Shown here in pieces: positions 571-60,644 of a stretch of DNA of 64,000 bases. Below the pieces are notes generated by a model, which searched no databases, was not told the DNA's origin, and saw only the letters and a list, made by a program, of their open reading frames with translations. The stretch lies in the sequence record PZ295659.1; one strand, given 5' to 3'. Every line of letters begins with the position of its first letter. The stretch's first letter is position 1. Position numbers and translations under genes: made by a program. The stretch is from a phage.

Positions 571-875
571 TATAATGTTCTCTCAAATTTGTGGAAGCAT
601 TTACGGCATTTCAATTTCAAGTTATCAGTTGTCCAGTTAACCAGTTGGACTTGGATAGTTCCACATTCCGGGCATGGATGTTTTGCTGCCGATTTGGCAG
701 CATTTTCACGTCGTTCAACCATTTTCATTATTTCGTTCCATGCCGGAGGAACGAACTCTTCTTCACCGTGGATTTTATCTCGCTGAACAAATTCAATCTT
801 TGAACTATCGTCAATAAACTTAACCAAGCTGTGATTAGTGCTCATGTCAATATCCTCTAAAAGACGTAGTTTCAT
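570..875 (-). CDS. hypothetical protein with C-terminal zinc-ribbon-like Cys pairs
   Basis: 101-aa ORF; CPECG...CRKC motif; stop overlaps next start. Confidence 0.5.
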   Translation of the reverse strand: MKLRLLEDIDMSTNHSLVKFIDDSSKIEFVQRDKIHGEEEFVPPAWNEIMKMVERRENAAKSAAKHPCPECGTIQVQLVNWTTDNLKLKCRKCFHKFERTL

Positions 876-1825
876 TATAAAACCTCAATTGCATTTCGTA
901 AACCATCCGCTTTTGCATTCAGAGCTTTTAACGATTTAGTTTGTTCTGCAATCTGGGCTTCGACTTCTTTCAGACGAGATTTGAGATATTCGCGTTCTTC
1001 TCTTAAGTTATCAACTTTTTCTGCTTTAGGCTCTTTAATAGGCTTAGGCTTATACTCGTTAGGGTTCTTCAACTTAATTTGAATGCGAGAACTGTATAAC
1101 ATTGAACCATTATCTTCGGTTTCATCATACATTTCTACCACGTCCATGATTCTTAACATCATGCGAAGTTTATAAGACAGCGAACGAATGGTTTTGTTGC
1201 GCTTATTAATTTCTTCGGCTTTCATGGTACCGAGATTACGTGAGTAGTAATAAGGAACCTGGATATCAATTGACAATGATGCGTTACCATTACCAGTTGG
1301 TTTGAATACTGCAGTAACCCAATCTTTAACATGAACTTTATTTGTACGACCATCACCGCCTGTGAATAATTTACGTGAATGTTTAAAAAGCATATTCACT
1401 TGGTTATTGAATTCACAAGCAAATTTATCAGCGAATTTAGTTTCAGGAATGGTAGATAACCAATCAGCCAAATGAGTCTTTTTAACATCGTTAATAATAG
1501 TAAATTCAACCAAATCAGTTTTAGATGTCACAGATTTAATAAAGCTCGGCTTCATAAAGTTTTTAATGTTATCACGAGCTACAGTAGAAGATAATAAACG
1601 AGAACGTTTAAACCATTGAAGCAGCGTCCCTAATGAATGAGAATACGCATTCTGAGTATCTTTACAGATATGATTTTCTTGGCCTGTGTATGTACCAAAA
1701 TCGCGAAGAATACCACTTACTACAACTCGGTGTGGAACATCAAATCCTAGTGCACCAGTAGCGCGCTGAGCATGAACGTTAGCGATAAGACCTGCAAAAT
1801 AATCAATGTAATGTGAACGTGTCAT
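875..1825 (-). CDS. hypothetical protein, C-terminal coiled coil
   Basis: 316-aa ORF with ATG start, early-promoter-like element upstream (1853-1885); K/E-rich heptad-like C-terminus. Confidence 0.55.
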   Translation of the reverse strand: MTRSHYIDYFAGLIANVHAQRATGALGFDVPHRVVVSGILRDFGTYTGQENHICKDTQNAYSHSLGTLLQWFKRSRLLSSTVARDNIKNFMKPSFIKSVTSKTDLVEFTIINDVKKTHLADWLSTIPETKFADKFACEFNNQVNMLFKHSRKLFTGGDGRTNKVHVKDWVTAVFKPTGNGNASLSIDIQVPYYYSRNLGTMKAEEINKRNKTIRSLSYKLRMMLRIMDVVEMYDETEDNGSMLYSSRIQIKLKNPNEYKPKPIKEPKAEKVDNLREEREYLKSRLKEVEAQIAEQTKSLKALNAKADGLRNAIEVL

Positions 1826-1852
1826 AATATTTTCCTCTCGTTAAGATAGATT

Positions 1853-1885
1853 CATTATACTCCAACCATCCTTGGTTGTAAACTG
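1853..1885 (-). promoter_or_regulatory. T4 early-type promoter-like element (GTTTAC -35, TATAAT -10 on minus strand) with palindromic spacer CAACCAAGGATGGTTG
   Basis: Minus-strand reading GTTTAC-N18-TATAAT about 30 nt upstream of ATG at 1825. Confidence 0.5.
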
Positions 1886-1887
1886 AT

Positions 1888-2820
1888 TTATGATTTTAAT
1901 GCATTCATTGCGTTAAAAAGTTTAGAGTACTGCAACTGGAGCTTGGTAACTACTTGTTGAGCATCATGAAGCTTAGCTTGTGCTTTGTCAAGTTCAACAG
2001 ACAGTTGGTCCACAGTGGCTTTGATTTGATTATAATAGTAATCTTCTGCAGGAAGAAGACCGTTAGAGATTTCCAGTTTAGACGACGGTGTACCGTTAAA
2101 CATAACAGGTTGTGCTGAAGCTGAATTAATCTTACCGATAGTCGGGGCGACAATAATTGACGCTTCAAACGTTGCATTTTCCTTTTTAAGATTTTTATAA
2201 TATTCAGAGTCTTTGTGCCACCATGGCGCAGGAACCTTTTTACCAATAGATACACGAGCCTGGATAGCGATATGGCCCTTATTCTTGATAGGGTCGATAA
2301 TATTAAGCTCACGAGAATAAATTGCTTTAATCTGGTGGATATTATCACCTAACACTTCCAACGCTTGGTGGAATACACGAGCAACGTTATCATTCTTAGG
2401 TTTATACGTAAGAGTGAACTCGTTCTCACTGATAACCATGATTTCTAACTTATCGTAAGTATATTTCAAATGTTTCATGTTAATTGCTTGAGGACGAATA
2501 CGAGAAGCAATGGCCATCAGATTGTTAAGGTTATTCCGGAACTGCTTAGCGAAATATTGTCCTTCACCACCAATACAAAAATTACGAAGTTTCTGTTTGG
2601 CTAATAAACGGCTGAACTCACCATTTTTAATGAACTCTTTAACGGGTGTGTTAGTAACGCATTCAAATTGAGTAAACTTACGAGAAGTAATCCCATAATA
2701 TGAACAGATTTCCTCAATCTCTTCAGGAGTCTTTACAGGCATACGGATAGGATTAGGACCTGGGGTATATGCGTTAGAGGTAAATTCTTTGATAAGTTCT
2801 CTACGTGTAATAGAAGCCAT
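1888..2820 (-). CDS. hypothetical protein, C-terminal coiled coil
   Basis: 310-aa ORF, ATG start; own promoter-like element upstream. Confidence 0.55.
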   Translation of the reverse strand: MASITRRELIKEFTSNAYTPGPNPIRMPVKTPEEIEEICSYYGITSRKFTQFECVTNTPVKEFIKNGEFSRLLAKQKLRNFCIGGEGQYFAKQFRNNLNNLMAIASRIRPQAINMKHLKYTYDKLEIMVISENEFTLTYKPKNDNVARVFHQALEVLGDNIHQIKAIYSRELNIIDPIKNKGHIAIQARVSIGKKVPAPWWHKDSEYYKNLKKENATFEASIIVAPTIGKINSASAQPVMFNGTPSSKLEISNGLLPAEDYYYNQIKATVDQLSVELDKAQAKLHDAQQVVTKLQLQYSKLFNAMNALKS

Positions 2821-2844
2821 TTTATATTCCTCATGTTGAAAAAT

Positions 2845-2876
2845 TTATTATACTCCAACCATCCTTGGTTGTACAT
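2845..2876 (-). promoter_or_regulatory. early/middle promoter-like element (TATAAT -10; same palindromic spacer as 1853-1885)
   Basis: Near-duplicate of the 1853-1885 element (tattatactccaaccatccttggttgta). Confidence 0.4.
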
Positions 2877-3871
2877 CATTCCTTAAGAAGTTTTACTACT
2901 TGAATAAGATTAGCTCGTTCTGTTTTATTTTTACCATTTAAGCCTGCTAATCGTGAGATTTCATCGTCAGTTTGTTGAATAGTTACATTAAGTTCGTTAA
3001 TCAAAGCTTCAAAGTATTTGATTTGCTCAGCATGTTTTGATTCAAATTTCTGAACCGGAATAACGTCTTGGTTTAGTTCATCAATAAGGTCTTTAAGAGC
3101 ATCTTCTTGGTTGATGTCATATTCAACTTCTTTTATTTCTTCAACGAGCTCGTCTTTATATCTAACGTCTTTTAGTCCTGGTGCTGGTCCTGAAATCTCT
3201 TCTTTAAGAGTACAAACATATCCAATACGATATCCAATGCCGTCTCGCTTGATAACAACTTCGTCAATAAATCCACAATGTTTAAGACCAGAGCCGATTA
3301 AGTCAAAATATCCTTGACGTCGTCCTTCAAACGTTACACGAACTACTAAGACAGTTTTACCTGCAACCTTTTGAAGCTCACATTTATAAAAGTCTGTTGA
3401 ACCTGAATAACGTGGATGAGTTTTAAAGTTCATCTGACGATCTAGGCCCATTTGTAAGCGTGCTGATACGGCCATAAAACGTGTTTGGTTCTCGTTAAGA
3501 TGAGCAACAATCCATTTCAAAGGCATTTTACCTTGTTCACGACCGAACAAATCAGTATATCCTAGATTACGCAGGATGTTGTTAGAGTTAATCATCGACA
3601 GAACGTTAAGTTTATTCAGCGCGCTGAAGATTCCATCAGCCATTGATTTTCCGTAACCTTTACACGCTTTAATAAGCGCTCGCGGTAGATTAGTATAGAT
3701 TTCAGACGGCATATGAAAATCAAATTTACTAGTCAGTAATTGATGGACTTGGATAGCAATTTGCTCATAATTAAGTGCTCTGCGATCATTATGGTCTTTA
3801 AACCACACTTTAATCTGTGAAGCACATAAACCGTTAATTTCATGTTTTACCGCATCAGATGTAATGCTCAT
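2876..3871 (-). CDS. hypothetical protein, C-terminal coiled coil
   Basis: 331-aa ORF, ATG start. Confidence 0.55.
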   Translation of the reverse strand: MSITSDAVKHEINGLCASQIKVWFKDHNDRRALNYEQIAIQVHQLLTSKFDFHMPSEIYTNLPRALIKACKGYGKSMADGIFSALNKLNVLSMINSNNILRNLGYTDLFGREQGKMPLKWIVAHLNENQTRFMAVSARLQMGLDRQMNFKTHPRYSGSTDFYKCELQKVAGKTVLVVRVTFEGRRQGYFDLIGSGLKHCGFIDEVVIKRDGIGYRIGYVCTLKEEISGPAPGLKDVRYKDELVEEIKEVEYDINQEDALKDLIDELNQDVIPVQKFESKHAEQIKYFEALINELNVTIQQTDDEISRLAGLNGKNKTERANLIQVVKLLKE

Positions 3872-3933: not shown

Positions 3934-4461
3934 TTATGCGTGAACCGTCTTTAAACGTTCTTCAAATTTCCGAAGAGTACTAATACGTTCTGCTTTCTGT
4001 TTTGTATAGTTTGCAATACGTTCTGAAGTGAGAGCGTATCGTTCGTTTACTGTTTCTTTCATGAAGTCAGGGATTTCACGAGAAGCTTTAATTTCATCAA
4101 ACTTATCGAGTACTGCCTGGTCTTCAGCGATTAAATTTTCATACATCTCGATATCTTTCTTGATAAACTCGATATCTTCCTGGGTTACTTTGGATAAACG
4201 AGATGCTTTATCCTTTTTGTACTGCTCGTTAGTTTCACGAGACCAGAATAATGTACGTTTTTTGTTAGTGTTTTTGTAGACTTCCACAATTCCAACTGAA
4301 TCGATGATAGCAATCCAATTCCAGCGAGATTTGAAAATCTGACCTCCGTCCACGGTAATCTCGTTACCATAAGCAATGTCATTAAAGAACTTGCTTTGTG
4401 CTTCAGATTTAAATTTACCGTCGTTATAATTTACCAGGTTGAAAATATCTTTAGCGTTCAT
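3934..4461 (-). CDS. hypothetical protein
   Basis: 175-aa ORF, ATG start, promoter-like element immediately upstream. Confidence 0.5.
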   Translation of the reverse strand: MNAKDIFNLVNYNDGKFKSEAQSKFFNDIAYGNEITVDGGQIFKSRWNWIAIIDSVGIVEVYKNTNKKRTLFWSRETNEQYKKDKASRLSKVTQEDIEFIKKDIEMYENLIAEDQAVLDKFDEIKASREIPDFMKETVNERYALTSERIANYTKQKAERISTLRKFEERLKTVHA

Positions 4462-4482
4462 GTTTTACCTCCAGTAGTTGAT

Positions 4483-4517
4483 AGGTCTATAATAACATAA
4501 CCATAGACCTTGTAAAC
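4483..4517 (-). promoter_or_regulatory. T4 early-type promoter-like element with flanking inverted repeat AGGTCTAT/ATAGACCT
   Basis: gtaaac (-35 complement) at 4512-4517, tctataataac -10 region; 8-bp inverted-repeat arms at 4483-4508. Confidence 0.45.
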
Positions 4518-4945: not shown

Positions 4946-5947
4946 TTATTTCAGTAAAGTAACTTCAGAGATTTCCTCCCAACCATCTTTATCAGTTGAA
5001 ATAAAATCTGCTACATAAAGAGCCGTACGTAATGATACATTGCGAAGACGAGATACGTTAGCCTTCATCCAGGACAATGCTTTATACGTTTCTGCATCTG
5101 TCAGACCACGTTTCTGCATCATGTCAGTAGATAATATTACATCTTCAACTCGAACCATAATCTCTTCATTAGAGTGTACTCCAAGGTCGAGATACACTGA
5201 ACGAGATACTAAAGCTTGAAGGTGTGGGGCAAGTTTCGAACCGCGTTCTAACTCTTTATCGATATCAACGTTTGTAATGAAAACGATAGTACCTTCAAAC
5301 TCAAATTCTTTATCAATACCCTTATCATCGAGATAAGATGACGCAGTGCTCCAGCAAACTTTGCGTTTATCTCCGGTATCTAATGCTGCTTTAAGAAGGT
5401 TCAAGATGTCCATATCTGAGAATACGTCAACGTCGTCGATTAAGAGAACGCTGTCTGCATCACGGTTGAGCCAAAGTTGTTCGTAAAGACCAATACCAGA
5501 GATTTTACCATTAATGCTTTTGTATTTGATGAAACCGTTATCATTAGCATTATTAAGCGCTTTATCCAGAGAATACGTCTTACCAATACCTGCTGCACCT
5601 GAAATAATGAGTGAACGAATTTTGCCATCGATAATGCCATTCGTCATCATGTTCATTACTTTAAAGCGTTTGTTGATACGAGTTTTCATATCTTCAGTGC
5701 TTTCAACAACTGCAACTGGTGATGTCTCAGCTCCTTCCATTATGATGTCTGATTTGAAGACCCATACTCCACGTTCAGAACCATCGATCATAACGAAAAT
5801 TTTACCGTCACCTAAGTGGGAACATTCAGGATTAAGCTTTGCCGGGAACCATGTCTTTGTGGCAACATAAGAACCAGAGATTTCGTTATTACGATAGATA
5901 CCTTTTTTGATTTGAACGTTGAACATTTTATTCTCCAATTTACTCAT
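4946..5947 (-). CDS. P-loop ATPase (Walker A GAAGIGKT, Walker B LLIDDVD) with ~110-aa N-terminal domain
   Basis: 333-aa ORF; motifs read directly from translation. Confidence 0.6.
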   Translation of the reverse strand: MSKLENKMFNVQIKKGIYRNNEISGSYVATKTWFPAKLNPECSHLGDGKIFVMIDGSERGVWVFKSDIIMEGAETSPVAVVESTEDMKTRINKRFKVMNMMTNGIIDGKIRSLIISGAAGIGKTYSLDKALNNANDNGFIKYKSINGKISGIGLYEQLWLNRDADSVLLIDDVDVFSDMDILNLLKAALDTGDKRKVCWSTASSYLDDKGIDKEFEFEGTIVFITNVDIDKELERGSKLAPHLQALVSRSVYLDLGVHSNEEIMVRVEDVILSTDMMQKRGLTDAETYKALSWMKANVSRLRNVSLRTALYVADFISTDKDGWEEISEVTLLK

Positions 5948-6298: not shown

Positions 6299-6317
6299 AA
6301 AGGGCCCGAAGGCCCTT
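6299..6317 (-). terminator. stem-loop GGGCC-TTCG-GGCCC directly after stop of the nucleotidyltransferase-like gene; weak U-tail
   Basis: Perfect hairpin; same stem sequence as the hairpin after wac at 47343-47356. Confidence 0.4.
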
Positions 6318-8499: not shown

Positions 8500-8623
8500 T
8501 TTACCATACTCGTTTCAATAAGATTCACTATGCCGTTTACCATGTTATAAGTAAACATCGGATAATTGTATTGTACTACAACATAAGCGATAAGCAAAAG
8601 TTTCATTTTGTTCTCCATTTGTT

Positions 8624-8664
8624 TTGGTAGGATTACTATATCATAGTCCTACCAAGACGTAAAC
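8624..8664 (-). promoter_or_regulatory. early-promoter-like element with near-perfect palindrome TTGGTAGGA...TCCTACCAA
   Basis: gtaaac at 8659-8664; inverted repeat 8624-8655. Confidence 0.35.
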
Positions 8665-9142: not shown

Positions 9143-9322
9143 TCACATAATCTCGTTAACATACATTTGCAATTCGGTGTGGGCTTCGGCCATCTTTTTC
9201 ATAGCTCTGTTAATGTCGATGTCTCCATCTTCGCAACCATGAGCATTTTCCCAATCAGACACCGCATTAGCATACTCTTCAATCAAAAACATTAACTTAG
9301 AAATTTTTTCTTTACGTGTCAT
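9143..9322 (-). CDS. hypothetical small protein (rI.-1 position)
   Basis: Track start is TTG; ATG at 9322 preceded by GAGGAG SD. Confidence 0.35.
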   Translation of the reverse strand: MTRKEKISKLMFLIEEYANAVSDWENAHGCEDGDIDINRAMKKMAEAHTELQMYVNEIM

Positions 9323-9329
9323 AACGTTC

Positions 9330-9378
9330 TCCTCTAGTAAGTAAAGACTACTATAACACAACCTGAGGAGAAGTAAAC
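9330..9378 (-). promoter_or_regulatory. early-promoter-like element with CTCCTC/GAGGAG inverted repeat that includes the downstream SD
   Basis: gtaaac at 9373-9378; ctcctctag...cctgaggag arms. Confidence 0.4.
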
Positions 9379-12492: not shown

Positions 12493-12951
12493 CTAGATTT
12501 TAATCACTGCTTTAGAAGCTTTTCCTGGTAGTCGTTTACTGTTAATAATAGCCATTCTGCATTGAAGAGTCTTCATTTTGAATGCTGGATTTTCGCGACA
12601 AACTGTAAGTCCTAACCAAAGATTTCCATCAGTTATTTCTAAACGGCCTGGGCGATATTCGACGCCTTCGACAAAATCTTCATCAACATCTGGACGTGCC
12701 GGCATTGATAAAAATTCTGCAACTTCTTTAACATGATTTTTTACTTTACGAAATAATTCAAAAACGTAGTTCTCATCTATTTCCCTCTGGATGGCACGAT
12801 CTAAGAGATGTTGAGAATACTTGATATGAAAGCCTGGTAGTCCAAGAGACTTTGCAGCATCTTTTATACCGGCATTTATTTTGCGGAACTCCGTTTCAAA
12901 GATTCGACGGAGTTTATTACGGCGGATAAAAACGTCTGAATTGATAGTCAT
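12493..12951 (-). CDS. regB: RegB site-specific endoribonuclease
   Basis: 152 aa; MTINSDVFIRRNKLRR...RLEITDGNLWLG...GKASKAVIK closely matches remembered T4 RegB. Confidence 0.9.
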   Translation of the reverse strand: MTINSDVFIRRNKLRRIFETEFRKINAGIKDAAKSLGLPGFHIKYSQHLLDRAIQREIDENYVFELFRKVKNHVKEVAEFLSMPARPDVDEDFVEGVEYRPGRLEITDGNLWLGLTVCRENPAFKMKTLQCRMAIINSKRLPGKASKAVIKI

Positions 12952-12958
12952 TTTGATT

Positions 12959-13008
12959 TCTCCTCTAGTTGACAGGTCTATAGTAACACAACTAGAGGAG
13001 AAGTAAAC
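12959..13008 (-). promoter_or_regulatory. early-promoter-like element with perfect 12-bp inverted repeat CTCCTCTAGTTG/CAACTAGAGGAG including the regB SD
   Basis: gtaaac at 13003-13008; -10-like TATAGA between the arms. Confidence 0.45.
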
Positions 13009-14385: not shown

Positions 14386-14921
14386 TGCATTCCAATCACA
14401 AAAAATTGAGGACGAGCAATACCGCCGATGCAATATTTGCTTTTGCAGCAGTGCTGTACTGATTTAATATGGACATTGTAAATCTTATCCATATCAGGAG
14501 CTTTAATAGGCTCGTCAATTATATACAGAATACGAGAAAGCATTAATCCACGGAATTTAGAACCTTCATTGCCAATAAAACTACGGACAGAATCAGTAAA
14601 TAAACGGAATCGAATATCATCGCTAGAATAACGAGAAAATTCTTTTTTAATGTTGCCAACAGAAATTTTAGCATAAGCTGAAGTATTAGAAAGAACAATA
14701 ACTGTTCCACCGTCGTACAGCCAATTAACCGCAAAATTAGTTACTGCGGTCGATTTACCTGATTGTCTGCCACCATCTAAACGAAGTGTACAGTACTGCT
14801 TGAGTACGTCTTCAAATGGCGGGGCATAACCGTTCTTACAAATTTCTTCTACTCTAGCATCAGAATGGTGTGTAAAAGCATTCATCAGGGATAGATAAGG
14901 TCCAGTTAAAAATGTTCTCAT
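14382..14921 (-). CDS. small P-loop NTPase (Walker A GGRQSGKST, Walker B-like IIDEP)
   Basis: 179-aa ORF, motifs read from translation. Confidence 0.5.
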   Translation of the reverse strand: MRTFLTGPYLSLMNAFTHHSDARVEEICKNGYAPPFEDVLKQYCTLRLDGGRQSGKSTAVTNFAVNWLYDGGTVIVLSNTSAYAKISVGNIKKEFSRYSSDDIRFRLFTDSVRSFIGNEGSKFRGLMLSRILYIIDEPIKAPDMDKIYNVHIKSVQHCCKSKYCIGGIARPQFFVIGMQ

Positions 14922-16373: not shown

Positions 16374-16787
16374 TTAGTAAATTGATTTACCATAGTATTT
16401 GTACCAAGTAGGACGTTGAGCAATTTTTTCATCTAAGCGTGCTTGACTTATCGCAATGGACGCTTCTGACGGGACATAATTATTACGAAATTCGGCAGGG
16501 ATGTCAGAAATATCCTGAACAGTCGTGTCCTTGATTTTGAAACCACGTTTCAAGCATTCAGCGATTAGCTCGATTTGTCGTAAACGTAAAAATTCGAGTT
16601 TGTCGTAAAAGAATGTTACGTGACCTGTGCCTAAGATAAATGTTGGAGAGATTTTAAAATCCTTTACACGTTTACCGTTTTGAACATGTTTACGGACCGC
16701 ACCAAATACGCGTGGTAATTCACGATACTCAGCCATAAGATGTTGGTCGGTCAGTTCAGAAACAAGTGTTAAATTGATACGAGTCAT
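16374..16787 (-). CDS. denV: endonuclease V (pyrimidine-dimer DNA glycosylase/AP lyase)
   Basis: [34 protein letters not shown]... closely matches remembered T4 DenV; start set at ATG 16787. Confidence 0.9.
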
Positions 16788-16792
16788 AATTT

Positions 16793-16844
16793 CCTCCAAG
16801 TAGTTGATGAATGTATAGTATCAAAGTCCTTGGAGGAAGTAAAC
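16793..16844 (-). promoter_or_regulatory. early-promoter-like element with inverted repeat CCTCCAAG/CTTGGAGG including the denV SD
   Basis: gtaaac at 16839-16844; inverted-repeat arms 16793-16800 and 16829-16836. Confidence 0.45.
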
Positions 16845-17612: not shown

Positions 17613-17646
17613 AATACCTCCCACGTTTATAGGAGGTATTTATTAC
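17613..17646 (-). promoter_or_regulatory. inverted repeat sequestering the lysozyme SD, with a late-promoter-like AATAAATA inside the 5' arm region
   Basis: Minus strand AATACCTCC-TATAAACGTG-GGAGGTATT-ATG: 9-bp stem pairs the GGAGG SD; resembles the translational control described for T4 gene e. Confidence 0.55.
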
Positions 17647-19604: not shown

Positions 19605-19644
19605 TAATAGGACTACTATAACATAATCCTATAATTGTGTAAAC
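19605..19644 (-). promoter_or_regulatory. early-promoter-like element with inverted repeat ATAGGA...TCCTAT flanking the -10
   Basis: gtaaac at 19639-19644; taggactactataacataatcctat. Confidence 0.45.
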
Positions 19645-20641: not shown

Positions 20642-20893
20642 TTAAATTTCACGACATGCGGTATCATATTCATCCCAGAGGTCATCGTGTGAAGCCTCTA
20701 CCAATGGAACGATTGTACCATTTATATCTTCATTATAAGGACAAATTGTACAATGTGCATCTTCGAATCGGATGCCTTTGTGTTCAGATTTTTTATAACG
20801 CATATCGAATATCTTTGCAAACTTTTCACGAGTAATGGTTTTAGCAACCACTTCGGTTCTAATACTTTCGTAATAAATCATTGTGGGCTCCAT
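20642..20893 (-). CDS. hypothetical small protein
   Basis: 83-aa ORF. Confidence 0.45.
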   Translation of the reverse strand: MEPTMIYYESIRTEVVAKTITREKFAKIFDMRYKKSEHKGIRFEDAHCTICPYNEDINGTIVPLVEASHDDLWDEYDTACREI

Positions 20894-20900
20894 TTAATTT

Positions 20901-20940
20901 GATAGGACTACTATAACATAGCCCTATCTTGTTGTAAACT
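20901..20940 (-). promoter_or_regulatory. early-promoter-like element with palindrome GATAGGACTA...TAGCCCTATC around the -10
   Basis: gtaaac at 20934-20939. Confidence 0.45.
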
Positions 20941-23677: not shown

Positions 23678-23747
23678 ATTATTACCTTTCAATTGGTGGT
23701 TTATTATCCAATGAGAGCATTATACTCTGCTCTCAAGAGTTTGTAAA

Positions 23748-23975
23748 TTATTTTTTAATCAAATTGACATAAAACTTGGCGTCTTCCGGATGCATGCCTT
23801 CACAGTATTCTTCAACCATGAACTTCTTAACGGCTTCATAAGGACCACTCAGATTAAGCTCAGTTGTCCAGAACTTGGAATCTTGGACTGAATCGATACG
23901 AACTTCAGGGTGACGGTTGCGAATAACTTCTTCAGTGTATTCATAATCAACGACATCAATACTAACTGTAGCCAT
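23748..23975 (-). CDS. hypothetical small protein
   Basis: 75-aa ORF with promoter-like element upstream. Confidence 0.45.
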   Translation of the reverse strand: MATVSIDVVDYEYTEEVIRNRHPEVRIDSVQDSKFWTTELNLSGPYEAVKKFMVEEYCEGMHPEDAKFYVNLIKK

Positions 23976-24042: not shown

Positions 24043-24375
24043 TTAATTTTTCCAACTTAACAACTTGTAGTGCCCTTCATTCGTACGAGGTTTATCCCAA
24101 GAAATACTAATATATGATTCACTGTCAATAGAAGTCGCCGGGTTTTTCTCTACCGTAAGACCTTCACTTTCCAGCCATTCAATAGTATTTGCGCATAAAT
24201 CAGAAGAACACCTCATCGGAAACCTGCAAGATTTTTCACCTTTAGCTGCAGTGTTATACATCTTTTCTAAAATACGCTTTTGCACGTTTTTAAAAATAGT
24301 TTCAGCGGATTCTTCAGATTTTTTATTCAGTTCAGTATAAAGACTCATAACATTCTTCTCATTAATAGGGCTCAT
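24043..24375 (-). CDS. hypothetical protein
   Basis: 110-aa ORF. Confidence 0.45.
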   Translation of the reverse strand: MSPINEKNVMSLYTELNKKSEESAETIFKNVQKRILEKMYNTAAKGEKSCRFPMRCSSDLCANTIEWLESEGLTVEKNPATSIDSESYISISWDKPRTNEGHYKLLSWKN

Positions 24376-24405
24376 AATATCTCAATCATAAGCCCATGTA
24401 AACAA

Positions 24406-24669
24406 TTATTTCATATTATTGAAATAATCTTCCGCATCAAAATCGTTATCATGGTAAACTTTGGTAGACGATTTGGCGTAGCCTTCAGCCGAGAACATAT
24501 TAATCACAACTTTAATTGTATACCACTGTCCGTCTTCATTACCCATTACTGCATAGGTTTCATACACAGGGTGTTCAGGACCGATAACTTTAATATCATT
24601 CACCGTACGTCCGAAATCTTCTGGAACGCATTTCATAAAGAAGTTGAACAGTTCACCGTAATTATCCAT
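24406..24669 (-). CDS. hypothetical protein
   Basis: Start moved to ATG 24669 (MDNYGELF...) with GGAG SD; longer track ORF overlaps promoter element. Confidence 0.45.
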   Translation of the reverse strand: MDNYGELFNFFMKCVPEDFGRTVNDIKVIGPEHPVYETYAVMGNEDGQWYTIKVVINMFSAEGYAKSSTKVYHDNDFDAEDYFNNMK

Positions 24670-24699
24670 TTCATTCTCCAAGTTTTTCTGTATCGGTAG

Positions 24700-24740
24700 T
24701 TGATAGTTGTATAGTACCACAGAAGAACAGGGATGTAAAC
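24700..24740 (-). promoter_or_regulatory. early-promoter-like element
   Basis: gtaaac at 24735-24740 and -10-like tatagtacc. Confidence 0.35.
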
Positions 24741-26196: not shown

Positions 26197-26273
<77 letters not shown>

Positions 26274-26279
26274 AATATA

Positions 26280-26353
26280 TGACCCAGACCAGATTCGAAC
26301 TGGTAACCTTTCCCTTATGAGGGGACTGCTGCTAACCGTTGAGCTACAGGGCC
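26280..26353 (-). tRNA. tRNA with CAU anticodon (Ile, lysidine-type, or Met), no encoded CCA
   Basis: Manual fold: acceptor GGCCCTG/CTGGGTC with one mismatch, anticodon loop CTCATAA, T arm ACCAG-TTCGAAT-CTGGT. Confidence 0.7.
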
Positions 26354-27621: not shown

Positions 27622-27828
27622 CTATTCACCTTTTGCAATTTTATCCATAACGATAGCGATTAAGCCGATTAGAAATGCTACTACCAATGAGATAGAATTT
27701 TCTGTTGTTGTCAGTAGTCCGCAAATGAATCCTACAAACATCGAAAAACTAAAAGCCATTGAAGCAATTACTACAGCAACATTACGAATCAGTTCAGCGC
27801 GTTTCATTTTATTTCTCCATTTACTCAT
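27622..27828 (-). CDS. hypothetical small membrane protein
   Basis: 68 aa, two hydrophobic helices. Confidence 0.4.
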   Translation of the reverse strand: MSKWRNKMKRAELIRNVAVVIASMAFSFSMFVGFICGLLTTTENSISLVVAFLIGLIAIVMDKIAKGE

Positions 27829-27835
27829 TTGATTT

Positions 27836-27874
27836 GATAGGACTACTATAACATAGTCCTATCAGCATGTAAAC
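27836..27874 (-). promoter_or_regulatory. early-promoter-like element with perfect palindrome GATAGGACTA...TAGTCCTATC
   Basis: gtaaac at 27869-27874. Confidence 0.45.
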
Positions 27875-28189: not shown

Positions 28190-28229
28190 TGATAGGATGA
28201 TAGTAACACACCATCATCCTTATGTAAAC
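28190..28229 (-). promoter_or_regulatory. early-promoter-like element with inverted repeat AGGATGAT...ATCATCCT
   Basis: gtaaac at 28224-28229. Confidence 0.4.
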
Positions 28230-29667: not shown

Positions 29668-29721
29668 AGGTTTTTCCTCATATAATTTATGAACGATTAT
29701 AACATATGGAGCTAGAAGCGA

Positions 29722-60309: not shown

Positions 60310-60578
60310 TATTTCTGTGCAATTTCGATGTAAGTTTTCAAAATATTTTGCCAATTAGGCATACCTTCTTGGACATATGCTAGAGAACCGTCTTTGTTTT
60401 TGAATGATGCAAGTTTATCAGTGGCCCAATAACCTTTAGCTCGAGCTTCAGAATCAACTTTCATCCATACTTTGTTGAAGGCATTACCATTAACTTTTGC
60501 ACCATATTTTTCTACCAACTTAACTGCTTCAGCTTCCAGAACTTTTAAAGTATCTCGTAAGAAACGTGCTTTAGTCAT
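60309..60578 (-). CDS. hypothetical protein, opposite-strand gene between 23 and 24
   Basis: 89-aa ORF with ATG start and its own early-promoter-like element; no GIY-YIG or HNH motif. Confidence 0.5.
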   Translation of the reverse strand: MTKARFLRDTLKVLEAEAVKLVEKYGAKVNGNAFNKVWMKVDSEARAKGYWATDKLASFKNKDGSLAYVQEGMPNWQNILKTYIEIAQK

Positions 60579-60589
60579 TTTGTTTACTC

Positions 60590-60638
60590 CTCTGTAGTTG
60601 ATAAGTCTATAGTATCACATACTAAATACGTTGTAAAC
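60590..60638 (-). promoter_or_regulatory. early-promoter-like element driving the 60309-60578 gene
   Basis: gtaaac at 60633-60638; core nearly identical to the element at 23985-24016. Confidence 0.45.
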
Positions 60639-60644
60639 AATCTT

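Follow-up and report, generated by a model that had tools for sequence, protein, structure and literature searches.

The stretch of DNA analysed here, referred to as the window, comprises 64,000 nucleotides of sequence record PZ295659.1. It derives from an RB69-like T-even phage (Mosigvirus), with about 98% megablast identity to Shigella phage phi25-307 and to many other Mosigvirus genomes; around regB, T4 is only about 74% identical to the window. The minus strand of about positions 1–30,000 forms the early-gene region, carrying nrdC, tk, vs, regB, denV, e and ipI, then genes 57, 1 and 3. We characterized the early promoters of this region, in particular the one in the gap (12959–13008) before the regB open reading frame (ORF; 12493–12951), where the promoter lies within an inverted repeat that includes the Shine-Dalgarno (SD) sequence of the gene. 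The original prediction had proposed that many early promoters of this phage are embedded in such repeats, and that the repeats generalise the mechanism known for T4 lysozyme.

Early promoters and the hairpins before regB and denV

The pattern GTTTAC-N17/18-TAnnnT occurs 21 times in the window, against 2.13 +/- 1.28 expected from dinucleotide shuffles (0 of 100 shuffles reached 21). Nineteen of these 21 matches are on the minus strand, and 18 of the 19 closely precede a start codon. Three extra promoter sites have a -35 element changed by one or two bases (23748, ATTTAC; 6271, GTGTAC; 2876, ATGTAC). The earlier count of at least 17 minus-strand GTTTAC promoters was thus correct, with 19 consensus matches in addition to the variant sites. 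Our working set consisted of the 21 promoters just 5′ of a start codon, 18 with the consensus and three with a variant -35. By sequence they have the T4-type early form, that is, GTTTAC, a spacer of 17 +/- 1 and a TGn-extended TAnnnT -10, with activity being predicted; their upstream context is A-rich (of the ttcacaaaac type), and most have tgt or tga ahead of the -10. These sigma-70-type promoters are squeezed into very short intergenic gaps, in a region of small, variable early ORFs. The +1 of every promoter is a predicted one, placed 7 nt after the -10.

The regB site (13008–12949, minus strand) reads GTTTAC-ttctcctctagttgtgt-TACTAT-agacctgt-caactagaggagaa-atcaaa-ATG. Its -35 (13008–13003) begins 5 nt past the stop codon of the upstream gene, the -10 TACTAT occupies 12985–12980, the predicted +1 is at about 12973 and the ATG is at 12951. 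The 5′ arm, TTCTCCTCTAGTTG (13002–12989), can pair with the 3′ arm, CAACTAGAGGAGAA (12971–12958), which contains the SD GAGGAG (12965–12960), giving a helix of 14 bp and -20.7 kcal/mol. The denV site (16785–16844, minus strand) is built in the same manner: its -35 (16844–16839), -10 TACTAT (16820–16815), predicted +1 (about 16808) and ATG (16787) accompany a 10 bp helix of -16.9 kcal/mol between TTCCTCCAAG (16838–16829) and CTTGGAGGAA (16800–16791). At both genes the 5′ arm lies at -30 to -16 in the promoter spacer, the entire SD is within the 3′ arm, and the predicted +1 (12973 and 16808, respectively) falls in the hairpin loop. Together with the promoter at 9378 (see below), they make up the spacer-SD class, in which a 5′ arm at -31 to -16, directly after the -35, contains CTCC, a 3′ arm at +3 to +20 contains GGAG, and the SD is predicted to be paired at 4/4 positions. 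The embedded regB and denV promoters are of the sigma-70 early type and not late (gp55) promoters.

We calculated the opening cost, defined as the free energy required for opening the ribosome site (-15 to +3 around the ATG), for read-through RNA including 60 nt upstream of the -35, and compared it with that for RNA starting at the predicted +1. The predicted cost for regB was 18.5 kcal/mol in the read-through RNA and 4.6 kcal/mol in the promoter-started RNA, a difference of 13.9 kcal/mol; for denV, the values were 11.8 and 2.7 kcal/mol (difference 9.1). The SD hairpin of the lysozyme gene e, which is of the known type, served as a positive control (17613–17640, minus strand; ATACCTCC...GGAGGTAT, arms 17640–17629 and 17624–17613; ATG 17612). 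This hairpin carries the late-promoter-like TAAATA/TATAAA on and inside its 5′ arm, and its opening cost was 17.4 kcal/mol in read-through RNA and about 5 kcal/mol in RNA started inside the hairpin, a difference of about 12 kcal/mol.

Read-through into regB is plausible, as the scan for terminator-like sites returned none between the upstream gene and regB. denV lies downstream of the lysozyme gene and of the late promoters of the latter. Separately, a candidate MotA-box middle promoter, AATGCTTTC-12-TATAAT, is present at 14544 on the minus strand, within the vs.8-position ORF; it would send middle-mode transcripts toward regB.

We then compared the two leaders across lineages. For regB, 12 distinct upstream regions were available: that of the window, five loci from annotated phage genomes and further viral contigs. 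In 11 of the 12, promoter sequence is the folding partner of the SD, and the only unmasked region belongs to the most distant relative (40% protein identity). When the eight tabulated variants were folded individually, GGAG was paired at 4/4 positions in seven and at 3/4 in VR7. The stems themselves differ from lineage to lineage: CTCTAGTTG/CAACTAGAG in the window, CTCTTGACTG/CAGTTAAGAG in T4, CTGTAAG/CTTACAG in Moon, CTTTTAGT/ACTAAAAG in CIP9 and CTCTTTATG/CATAAAGAG in a Gelderlandvirus-like contig. VR7 is different in that the -10 region (GTTATGATTATC) has taken over as the partner, pairing with GGAGATAATCATGAC; even so, the SD and the AUG remain covered.

For denV, a DenV search of viral contigs yielded 33 distinct upstream regions, 28 of which have a recognisable early promoter. 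The opening-cost difference was 4.6–19.5 kcal/mol in all 28 promoter-bearing regions, as compared with about 20% of promoter-swap chimeras above 4 kcal/mol. Individual folds of the 18 distinct variants paired GGAG at 4/4 positions in 17 and at 2/4 in one. The anti-SD has two architectures, lying either at -28 to -24 in the spacer (window, T4) or at -3 to +1 just before the predicted start, and it is never further downstream than the latter. RNAalifold returned no pairs from a MAFFT alignment of 13 denV leaders, a result explained by stems that slide in register between lineages; therefore, conserved pairing was counted from individual folds, not from a consensus fold. Both leaders thus have a conserved structure with changes on both sides of pairs (eight variants of regB, 18 of denV). 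A constant target, the SD, with a changing partner at or upstream of +1 is what would be expected from selection for SD occlusion in longer transcripts.

Repeats and masking across the promoter set

To compare the repeats with chance, we determined the best duplex between the upstream part of each promoter (-35 to the first -10 bases) and its downstream part (the -10 end to the ATG). Across the 21 promoters, own-partner duplexes averaged -12.1 kcal/mol and non-cognate ones -9.0 kcal/mol, and 0 of 20,000 permutations reached the own-partner mean. With regB, denV and 9378 removed and only arms flanking the -10 considered, the own-partner mean was -8.9 versus -6.0 +/- 0.6 kcal/mol, again with 0 of 20,000 permutations reaching it, and duplexes of -10 kcal/mol or lower were found in 8/18 promoters versus 5.5% of random positions with matching geometry. 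The own-partner excess was also present in T4, VR7 (Gaprivervirus), Moon, STP4-a (Gelderlandvirus) and CIP9 (Kanagawavirus), each with P <= 0.0016. One could argue that the complementarity arises by chance, or from a promoter consensus that is partly self-complementary; the TATA of the -10 and the conserved downstream ..CCTATCAA.. do give all promoters some common pairing potential, and non-cognate combinations still average -9 kcal/mol. However, this explanation is contradicted by the permutation tests, in which swapped partners never matched own partners here and fell below them in all six genera, and by the excess over random positions, so that we assign it virtually no chance of being correct. 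The repeats are real and site-specific, and they are a general property of early promoters in all six Tevenvirinae genera tested.

More than half of the promoters carry a site-specific inverted repeat, made from the only freely variable parts of the cassette, namely the spacer, the stretch from the -10 to +1 and the leader. The 21 promoters comprise eight class A sites (arms flanking the -10), two spacer hairpins, three spacer-SD sites, two ambiguous cases and six without a convincing repeat (21828, 16104, 14988, 6271, 5993 and 903). All repeats quoted in the original prediction are present: CTCCTCTAGTTG and CAACTAGAGGAG before regB as described, and CCTCCAAG/CTTGGAGG before denV at 16838–16829 and 16800–16791. 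Two entries need amendment. The pair GATAGGACTA/TAGTCCTATC is found at the 27874 promoter but is not exact at 20939, whose 5′ arm is GATAGGGCTA, with one G.T pair; and the spacer palindrome CAACCAAGGATGGTTG does occur twice (1878–1863 and 2871–2856), the second copy lying behind a degenerate -35, ATGTAC.

Opening-cost differences above 4 kcal/mol were obtained for regB (13.9), denV (9.1), 24740 (6.7), 60638 (6.3), 9378 (4.9) and 2876 (4.1), and all other promoters fell between -0.6 and 2.4 kcal/mol. Among the promoter-swap chimeras, 17–21% exceeded 4 kcal/mol, and the mean difference was 2.4 kcal/mol for own and 2.1 kcal/mol for chimeric combinations. By prediction, the SD or AUG is masked by the repeat at regB, denV and 9378, and not at the eight class A, two spacer-hairpin and six repeat-free sites.

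The 9378 promoter (9320–9378, minus strand) precedes a 59-aa ORF at the mobD.5 position. Its spacer arm, ACTTCTCCTCAG (9374–9363), pairs with the SD-containing CTAGAGGAGAACGT (9337–9324) in a 12 bp helix of -13.2 kcal/mol with the SD paired 4/4; the -10 is at 9355–9350 and the ATG at 9322. Its difference of 4.9 kcal/mol is inside the chimera background. In T4, the mobD.5 promoter is not one of those whose difference exceeds 4 kcal/mol, and the equivalent site there shows no masking. SD masking at 9378 is therefore possible and plausible, with a weaker case than at regB and denV. At the first of the ambiguous sites, the e.8-position promoter at 24740 (24669–24740, minus strand), an interrupted helix between TCCCTGTTCTTCTGT (24733–24719) and ACAGAAAAACTTGGA (24691–24677) touches 3/4 SD bases; its T4 counterpart is similar in sequence, with no change on both sides of any pair. 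At the second, 60638 (60578–60640, minus strand), the -35 region TTGTTTACAAC (60640–60630) can pair at -9.8 kcal/mol with GGAGTAAACAA (60590–60580), between the SD and the ATG. The differences at both sites lie inside the chimera background, and SD masking at 24740, 60638 and 2876 is unproven.

A comparable arrangement was seen at gene 1 (dNMP kinase; ATG 29667). Here, a MotA-box-like middle promoter, atcGCTTct followed after 12 nt by TATAAT, is located at 29714–29659 on the minus strand, and its spacer, AGCTCCATAT, pairs with tATGGAGCT, a segment made up of the start codon and codons 2–3 (minimum free energy, -22.6). In T4, gene 1 is arranged in the same way, its arms (TTCAGTTTTGTGTGT/ACACATGAAACTAA) being different and one of the changes falling in codon 2. 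From these arms, the masking design seems to occur with a middle promoter too. T4 denV and gene 1 are both among the promoters predicted to mask the ribosome site.

The eight class A sites (28229, 27874, 24403, 23748, 20939, 19644, 8664 and 4517) have stems of 10–14 bp and -10 to -17 kcal/mol. Their 5′ arm lies in the spacer, at about -30 to -15, and their 3′ arm runs from the -10 end to between -1 and +8, so that the TGn and most of the -10 are in the loop and the centre of the repeat is fixed at the 5′ edge of the -10. The 3′ arm never reaches the SD, and the opening-cost difference is about 0. Since the arms stay off the SD, class A sites cannot work through it.

All of them are on the minus strand. 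The site of the ipI-position gene (28194–28229; arms AGGATGATGGTG 28220–28209 and TACTATCATCCT 28205–28194; 12 bp, -14.4 kcal/mol, cost difference 0.1) has a 3′ arm ending at -1, and in its T4 equivalent other arms adopt this geometry. The 27874 site (27835–27874; TGATAGGACTAT 27864–27853 and GTAGTCCTATCA 27846–27835; 12 bp, -16.7 kcal/mol, cost difference -0.6) has its -10, TATAGT, at 27850–27845. The 24403 site (24368–24403; GGGCTTATGAT 24395–24385 and ATTATGAGCCC 24378–24368; 11 bp, -14.4 kcal/mol) contains GGGCT/AGCCC where the T4 e.7 promoter contains AGGCT/AGCCT, one pair being changed on both sides. The e.6-position promoter at 23748, with the -35 ATTTAC (23708–23748; CTCTTGAGAGCA 23739–23728 and TGCTCTCATTGG 23719–23708; 10 bp, -12.7 kcal/mol), has GTGTAGGAG/CTCCTACAC at the same place in Kanagawavirus-like relatives and no hairpin in T4-like relatives. 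The remaining sites are 20939 (20901–20939; GATAGGGCTAT 20928–20918 and GTAGTCCTATC 20911–20901; 11 bp with one G.U pair, -14.5 kcal/mol, cost difference -0.3), 19644 (19607–19644; ATAGGATTAT 19632–19623 and GTAGTCCTAT 19616–19607; 10 bp, -9.9 kcal/mol), 8664 (8621–8664; GTCTTGGTAGGACTAT 8658–8643 and GTAATCCTACCAAAAC 8636–8621; 14 bp, -14.4 kcal/mol) and the nrdC.8 promoter at 4517 (4483–4517; AGGTCTATGGT 4510–4500 and ATTATAGACCT 4493–4483; 11 bp, -12.4 kcal/mol). Relatives of the genes downstream of 19644 and 24403 were all near-identical and added no variation.

Four cassettes, 27874, 20939, 19644 and 8664, share a near-identical core of about 30 nt, (g)ATAGGaCTATGtTATAGTAgTCCTAtCAAA, and the small ORFs downstream of them are unrelated. 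The 8664 copy has GGTAG/CTACC for the GATAG/CTATC of its three sisters, a paired change. Judged by its sequence, the four-copy core looks like the spread of one cassette, as proposed for the shuffling of promoter-early stem-loop (PeSL) elements (see below). At nrdC.8, the downstream half of the cassette, agacctatcaactactggagg, is kept in several lineages; a CTCC-containing spacer masks the SD in T4-like phages and two other lineages, and in Mosigvirus (4461–4517) that spacer is replaced by aggtctatgg, which pairs with agacct to give a class A hairpin. Class A hairpins thus recur yet are evolutionarily labile, as seen at the e.6-position and nrdC.8 promoters.

In the two spacer hairpins (1854–1883 and 2847–2876, minus strand), the palindrome sits in the space separating the -35 from the -10. 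The 2876 cassette is a duplicate of the 1883 cassette and precedes a tandem paralogue. Three tandem paralogous ORFs of 310–331 aa occupy 875–3871 on the minus strand (875–1825, 1888–2820 and 2876–3871); two of the three are preceded by this same promoter with its spacer hairpin, the -35 of the upstream copy having decayed to ATGTAC.

We also considered the promoter hairpins as intrinsic terminators, a reading that we rejected because T runs are lacking after the stems. In the window scan, none of them was followed by a T run or was among the terminator-like sites; A-rich sequence follows the stems (..atcaaa.., ..gaaatcaaaatg). Separate canonical terminator-like hairpins, with a G+C-rich stem and a T run, lie in intergenic positions on the minus strand at 6317–6291, 15463–15446, 24836–24814 and 23075–23058, and two of the four are just upstream of early promoters (6271 and 24740).

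Known systems and competing explanations

Stem-loops at early promoters have been described before. PeSL cassettes of T4-type phages were reported by Arbiol et al. 2010 (PMC2839356) and Comeau et al. 2014 (PMC4122927); their stem-loops lie between the -35 and -10 or overlap the -10 (PMC2839356), and roles in termination or attenuation and in recombination were proposed (PMC2839356, PMC4122927). The cassettes of the window resemble them in having a strong early promoter of the sigma-70 type that follows an A/T-rich region, a stem-loop between the -35 and -10, over the -10 or ending just before the start, and the SD and start codon at the 3′ end, as well as in occurring in short gaps among small variable early ORFs with near-identical copies at several places. 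Ten sites, eight flanking the -10 and two in the spacer, have the PeSL geometry with complementarity above chance. PeSLs are known, however, from RB49/phi1 (G-run/C-run stems), PST/T4 (with stems depicted immediately upstream of the promoter) and nt-1/KVP40, whereas the stems in the window are of 10–14 bp and mixed sequence, without a T run; we found no PeSL description for RB69-like phages in the literature searched. The paper on the RB69 genome, in which 57 early promoters are predicted, makes no mention of stems (PMC1524935). The observation as a whole is for the most part already described, the class A and spacer hairpins matching PeSLs. The PeSL papers describe neither a stem with the SD as its 3′ arm nor a translational role.

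The latter features belong to a different system. In T4, the transcripts of e (lysozyme), soc, 49 and I-TevI contain ribosome-site-sequestering structures with an internal late promoter (PMC3014915). As in the e type, the long regB and denV transcripts are predicted to fold the SD or AUG into a helix, the RNA from the internal promoter would lack the 5′ arm and be translatable, the structure is kept in relatives, and the predicted energies are of the same size as that of the e hairpin in the window. In contrast, the internal promoter of the known cases is late (TATAAATA) and delays translation to late infection, whereas that of regB and denV is an early sigma-70 promoter with the 5′ arm in its -35/-10 spacer, for which the predicted effect is early-only translation. 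regB and denV are not among the examples in PMC3014915. None of the papers searched describes an SD-including hairpin at an early promoter; an earlier notice of one, for instance in the classical T4 literature or the genome review of 2003, is possible. The hairpins of regB and denV are best regarded as early-promoter-driven additions to the known mechanism in which a promoter sits inside a ribosome-site-masking hairpin. With regard to regB control, that of T4 is described as an early promoter plus self-cleavage only (PMC3014915), and RegB is made early in T4 infection (PMC9697503). RegB autoregulation (PMC3014915) acts on the same GGAG of the same gene and likewise limits RegB synthesis post-transcriptionally; it does so by cleavage of accessible GGAG in trans, while the hairpin would be a cis element hiding the read-through GGAG from ribosomes, and probably also from RegB.

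The reading that we favour, and consider probable, is that regB and denV are subject to lysozyme-type masking with an early promoter in place of the late one, and that the ten other sites are PeSL-type cassettes. In read-through RNA of regB, denV and possibly 9378, the spacer anti-SD (CTCC) would pair with the GGAG of the gene itself; RNA from the embedded promoter would begin in the loop, lack the 5′ arm and leave the SD free. regB and denV would then be translated only from their own early-promoter transcripts, and shut-off of the early promoters would end their translation even though middle or late read-through RNA crosses the genes. At the ten PeSL-type sites, the hairpin would form only in read-through RNA or in DNA, off the ribosome site, and might attenuate read-through, protect the 3′ end of the upstream message and/or mark recombining cassettes; that class A hairpins act on read-through RNA or in cassette recombination is a suggestion of low confidence. 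For regB and denV, the start sites, the folding of the RNA in the cell and the effect on translation are what we infer from the sequences, their statistics, predicted energies and conservation.

The lysozyme-type interpretation has good support at regB and denV and is possible at 9378; as a general account it is wrong. The claims of the original prediction hold in part. A read-through hairpin pairing with the SD, proposed for several cases, is supported at regB and denV by predicted opening costs and by conservation across lineages, may apply to 9378 and fails at the eight class A sites. Likewise, promoter-started transcripts would lack the 5′ arm at regB and denV, where the predicted +1 is in the loop, whereas class A transcripts would lack both arms. 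The comparison of folded read-through and promoter-initiated leaders gave a large cost gap at regB and denV and one of about 0 at class A sites. As a rule for early promoters, the mechanism does not survive the chimera test, nor the finding that class A arms never reach the SD.

Several observations weigh against the favoured reading. Masking is not enriched in this genome: 6/21 promoters exceed 4 kcal/mol versus 4.4 in the promoter-swap chimeras (P = 0.23). As chimeras mask equally often, set-wide SD masking was rejected; what is exceptional within this genome is solely the magnitude of the effects at regB and denV, and without within-genome enrichment the case for these genes rests on conservation across lineages. 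The transcription starts in the window depend on the assumed 7-nt spacing after the -10. At nrdC.8 the type of hairpin switches between lineages, so that what is conserved there is some hairpin rather than SD masking. Strand asymmetry was absent among the 67 promoter hairpins of six genomes, in which interruptions of the G.U type (12) were about as frequent as those of the A.C type (11), counts that do not discriminate between the RNA and the DNA level; selection on the sense-strand RNA thus remains undemonstrated for the cassettes in general. Finally, the resistance of the T4 denV SD to RegB has been ascribed to sequence 3′ of GGAG, not to structure (PMC1702504).

These points bear on the competing explanations to different extents. 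All repeats, including those at regB and denV, could be PeSL stem-loops that attenuate or terminate upstream transcription and provide homology for shuffling, with the SD overlap being a by-product of tight packing and of no translational role. Such a view accords with the PeSL-like architecture, the setting among small variable early ORFs, the interchangeable hairpin at nrdC.8 and the pattern of recombination spread seen in the shared core of about 30 nt (27874, 20939, 19644 and 8664) and the duplicate pair 1883/2876. We nevertheless regard it as unlikely, because the promoter hairpins have no T run and are not terminator-like while separate canonical terminators exist, and because at regB and denV the SD stays constant against a changing remainder of the helix and a 5′ arm that varies even in location, which would be unexpected for an accidental overlap. 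Another possibility is that the SD hairpins mainly shield the GGAG of read-through polycistronic RNA from RegB, stabilising downstream cistrons, with the ribosome block being secondary. GGAG in early SDs is a RegB target, RNA structure inhibits the enzyme, sixteen GGAG sites of T4 that resist RegB lie in stable structures, and T4 denV and gene 1, predicted here to mask the ribosome site, are among the genes that are resistant or poorly cut: Durand et al. 2006 (PMC1702504) found the SDs of T4 denV and mobD.5 resistant in vivo and that of gene 1 cut very weakly. Yet those authors made denV cleavable by altering only 7 nt 3′ of GGAG, with probing showing no structural change, and ascribed the weak cutting of gene 1 to sequence 3′ of GGAG as well (PMC1702504); the SD of regB itself is efficiently cut by RegB (PMC3014915). 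Shielding as the main role is accordingly rather improbable, although it is compatible with ribosome masking and does not exclude it.

It is very improbable, in our assessment, that the repeats act in DNA as palindromes at the -10, whether through protein binding, cruciforms, or tuning of promoter strength or early shut-off. The fixed centre of the class A repeats at the 5′ edge of the -10 and the lack of a G.U excess over A.C would suit this explanation, and the mechanism of early-promoter shut-off has been described as not fully understood (PMC3014915). However, the arm sequences vary from site to site, which leaves no common operator; the fixed position also follows from the cassette having no unconstrained bases other than those of the spacer and of the stretch from the -10 to +1; and the invariant partner at regB and denV is the SD, an RNA signal.

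If regB and denV are indeed masked in read-through RNA, shut-off of the early promoters would automatically stop their translation despite continuing middle and late transcripts, which would add a cis layer to RegB control besides self-cleavage and extend a textbook T4 mechanism from late to early promoters, and probably to middle ones. The abundance of such genes in RNA-seq would then be a poor predictor of protein synthesis, and the annotation and engineering of T4-like therapeutic phages should count the promoter spacer as a translational element. For the hairpins flanking the -10, which are already in the literature as PeSLs, our analysis shows selection in six genera. More tentatively, and with odds somewhat against it, translation confined to transcripts from a gene's own promoter may serve T-even phages as a general means of timing across the early, middle and late promoter classes. 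A promoter would sit inside a ribosome-site-masking hairpin and the gene would be translated only while that promoter fires, with regB and denV (early) and gene 1 (middle) joining e, soc, 49 and I-TevI (late); the hairpins flanking the -10 would be a second, functionally distinct promoter-tied element, perhaps serving in 3′-end protection, attenuation or a DNA-level function. In the case of regB, such a device would account for a dangerous nuclease being synthesised only in the opening minutes of infection.

Other features of the window

Scanning the whole window against Rfam assigned no family to the promoter hairpins at the gathering score; the sole matches were two tRNA genes on the minus strand (26200–26353). 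The T4 reference record NC_000866 contains an N at about 70340, within the hairpin of the e.7 promoter, in its 5′ arm (ataggctNatgatt). Four minus-strand leaders (27807–27828, 20881–20893, 8606–8618 and 5926–5947) have an in-frame ATG 12–21 nt upstream of the ATG served by the SD, and the upstream ATG overlaps the SD as aaATGGAG in two of the four. The annotated starts of these four small genes may be too long, as ORF callers tend to choose the upstream ATG.

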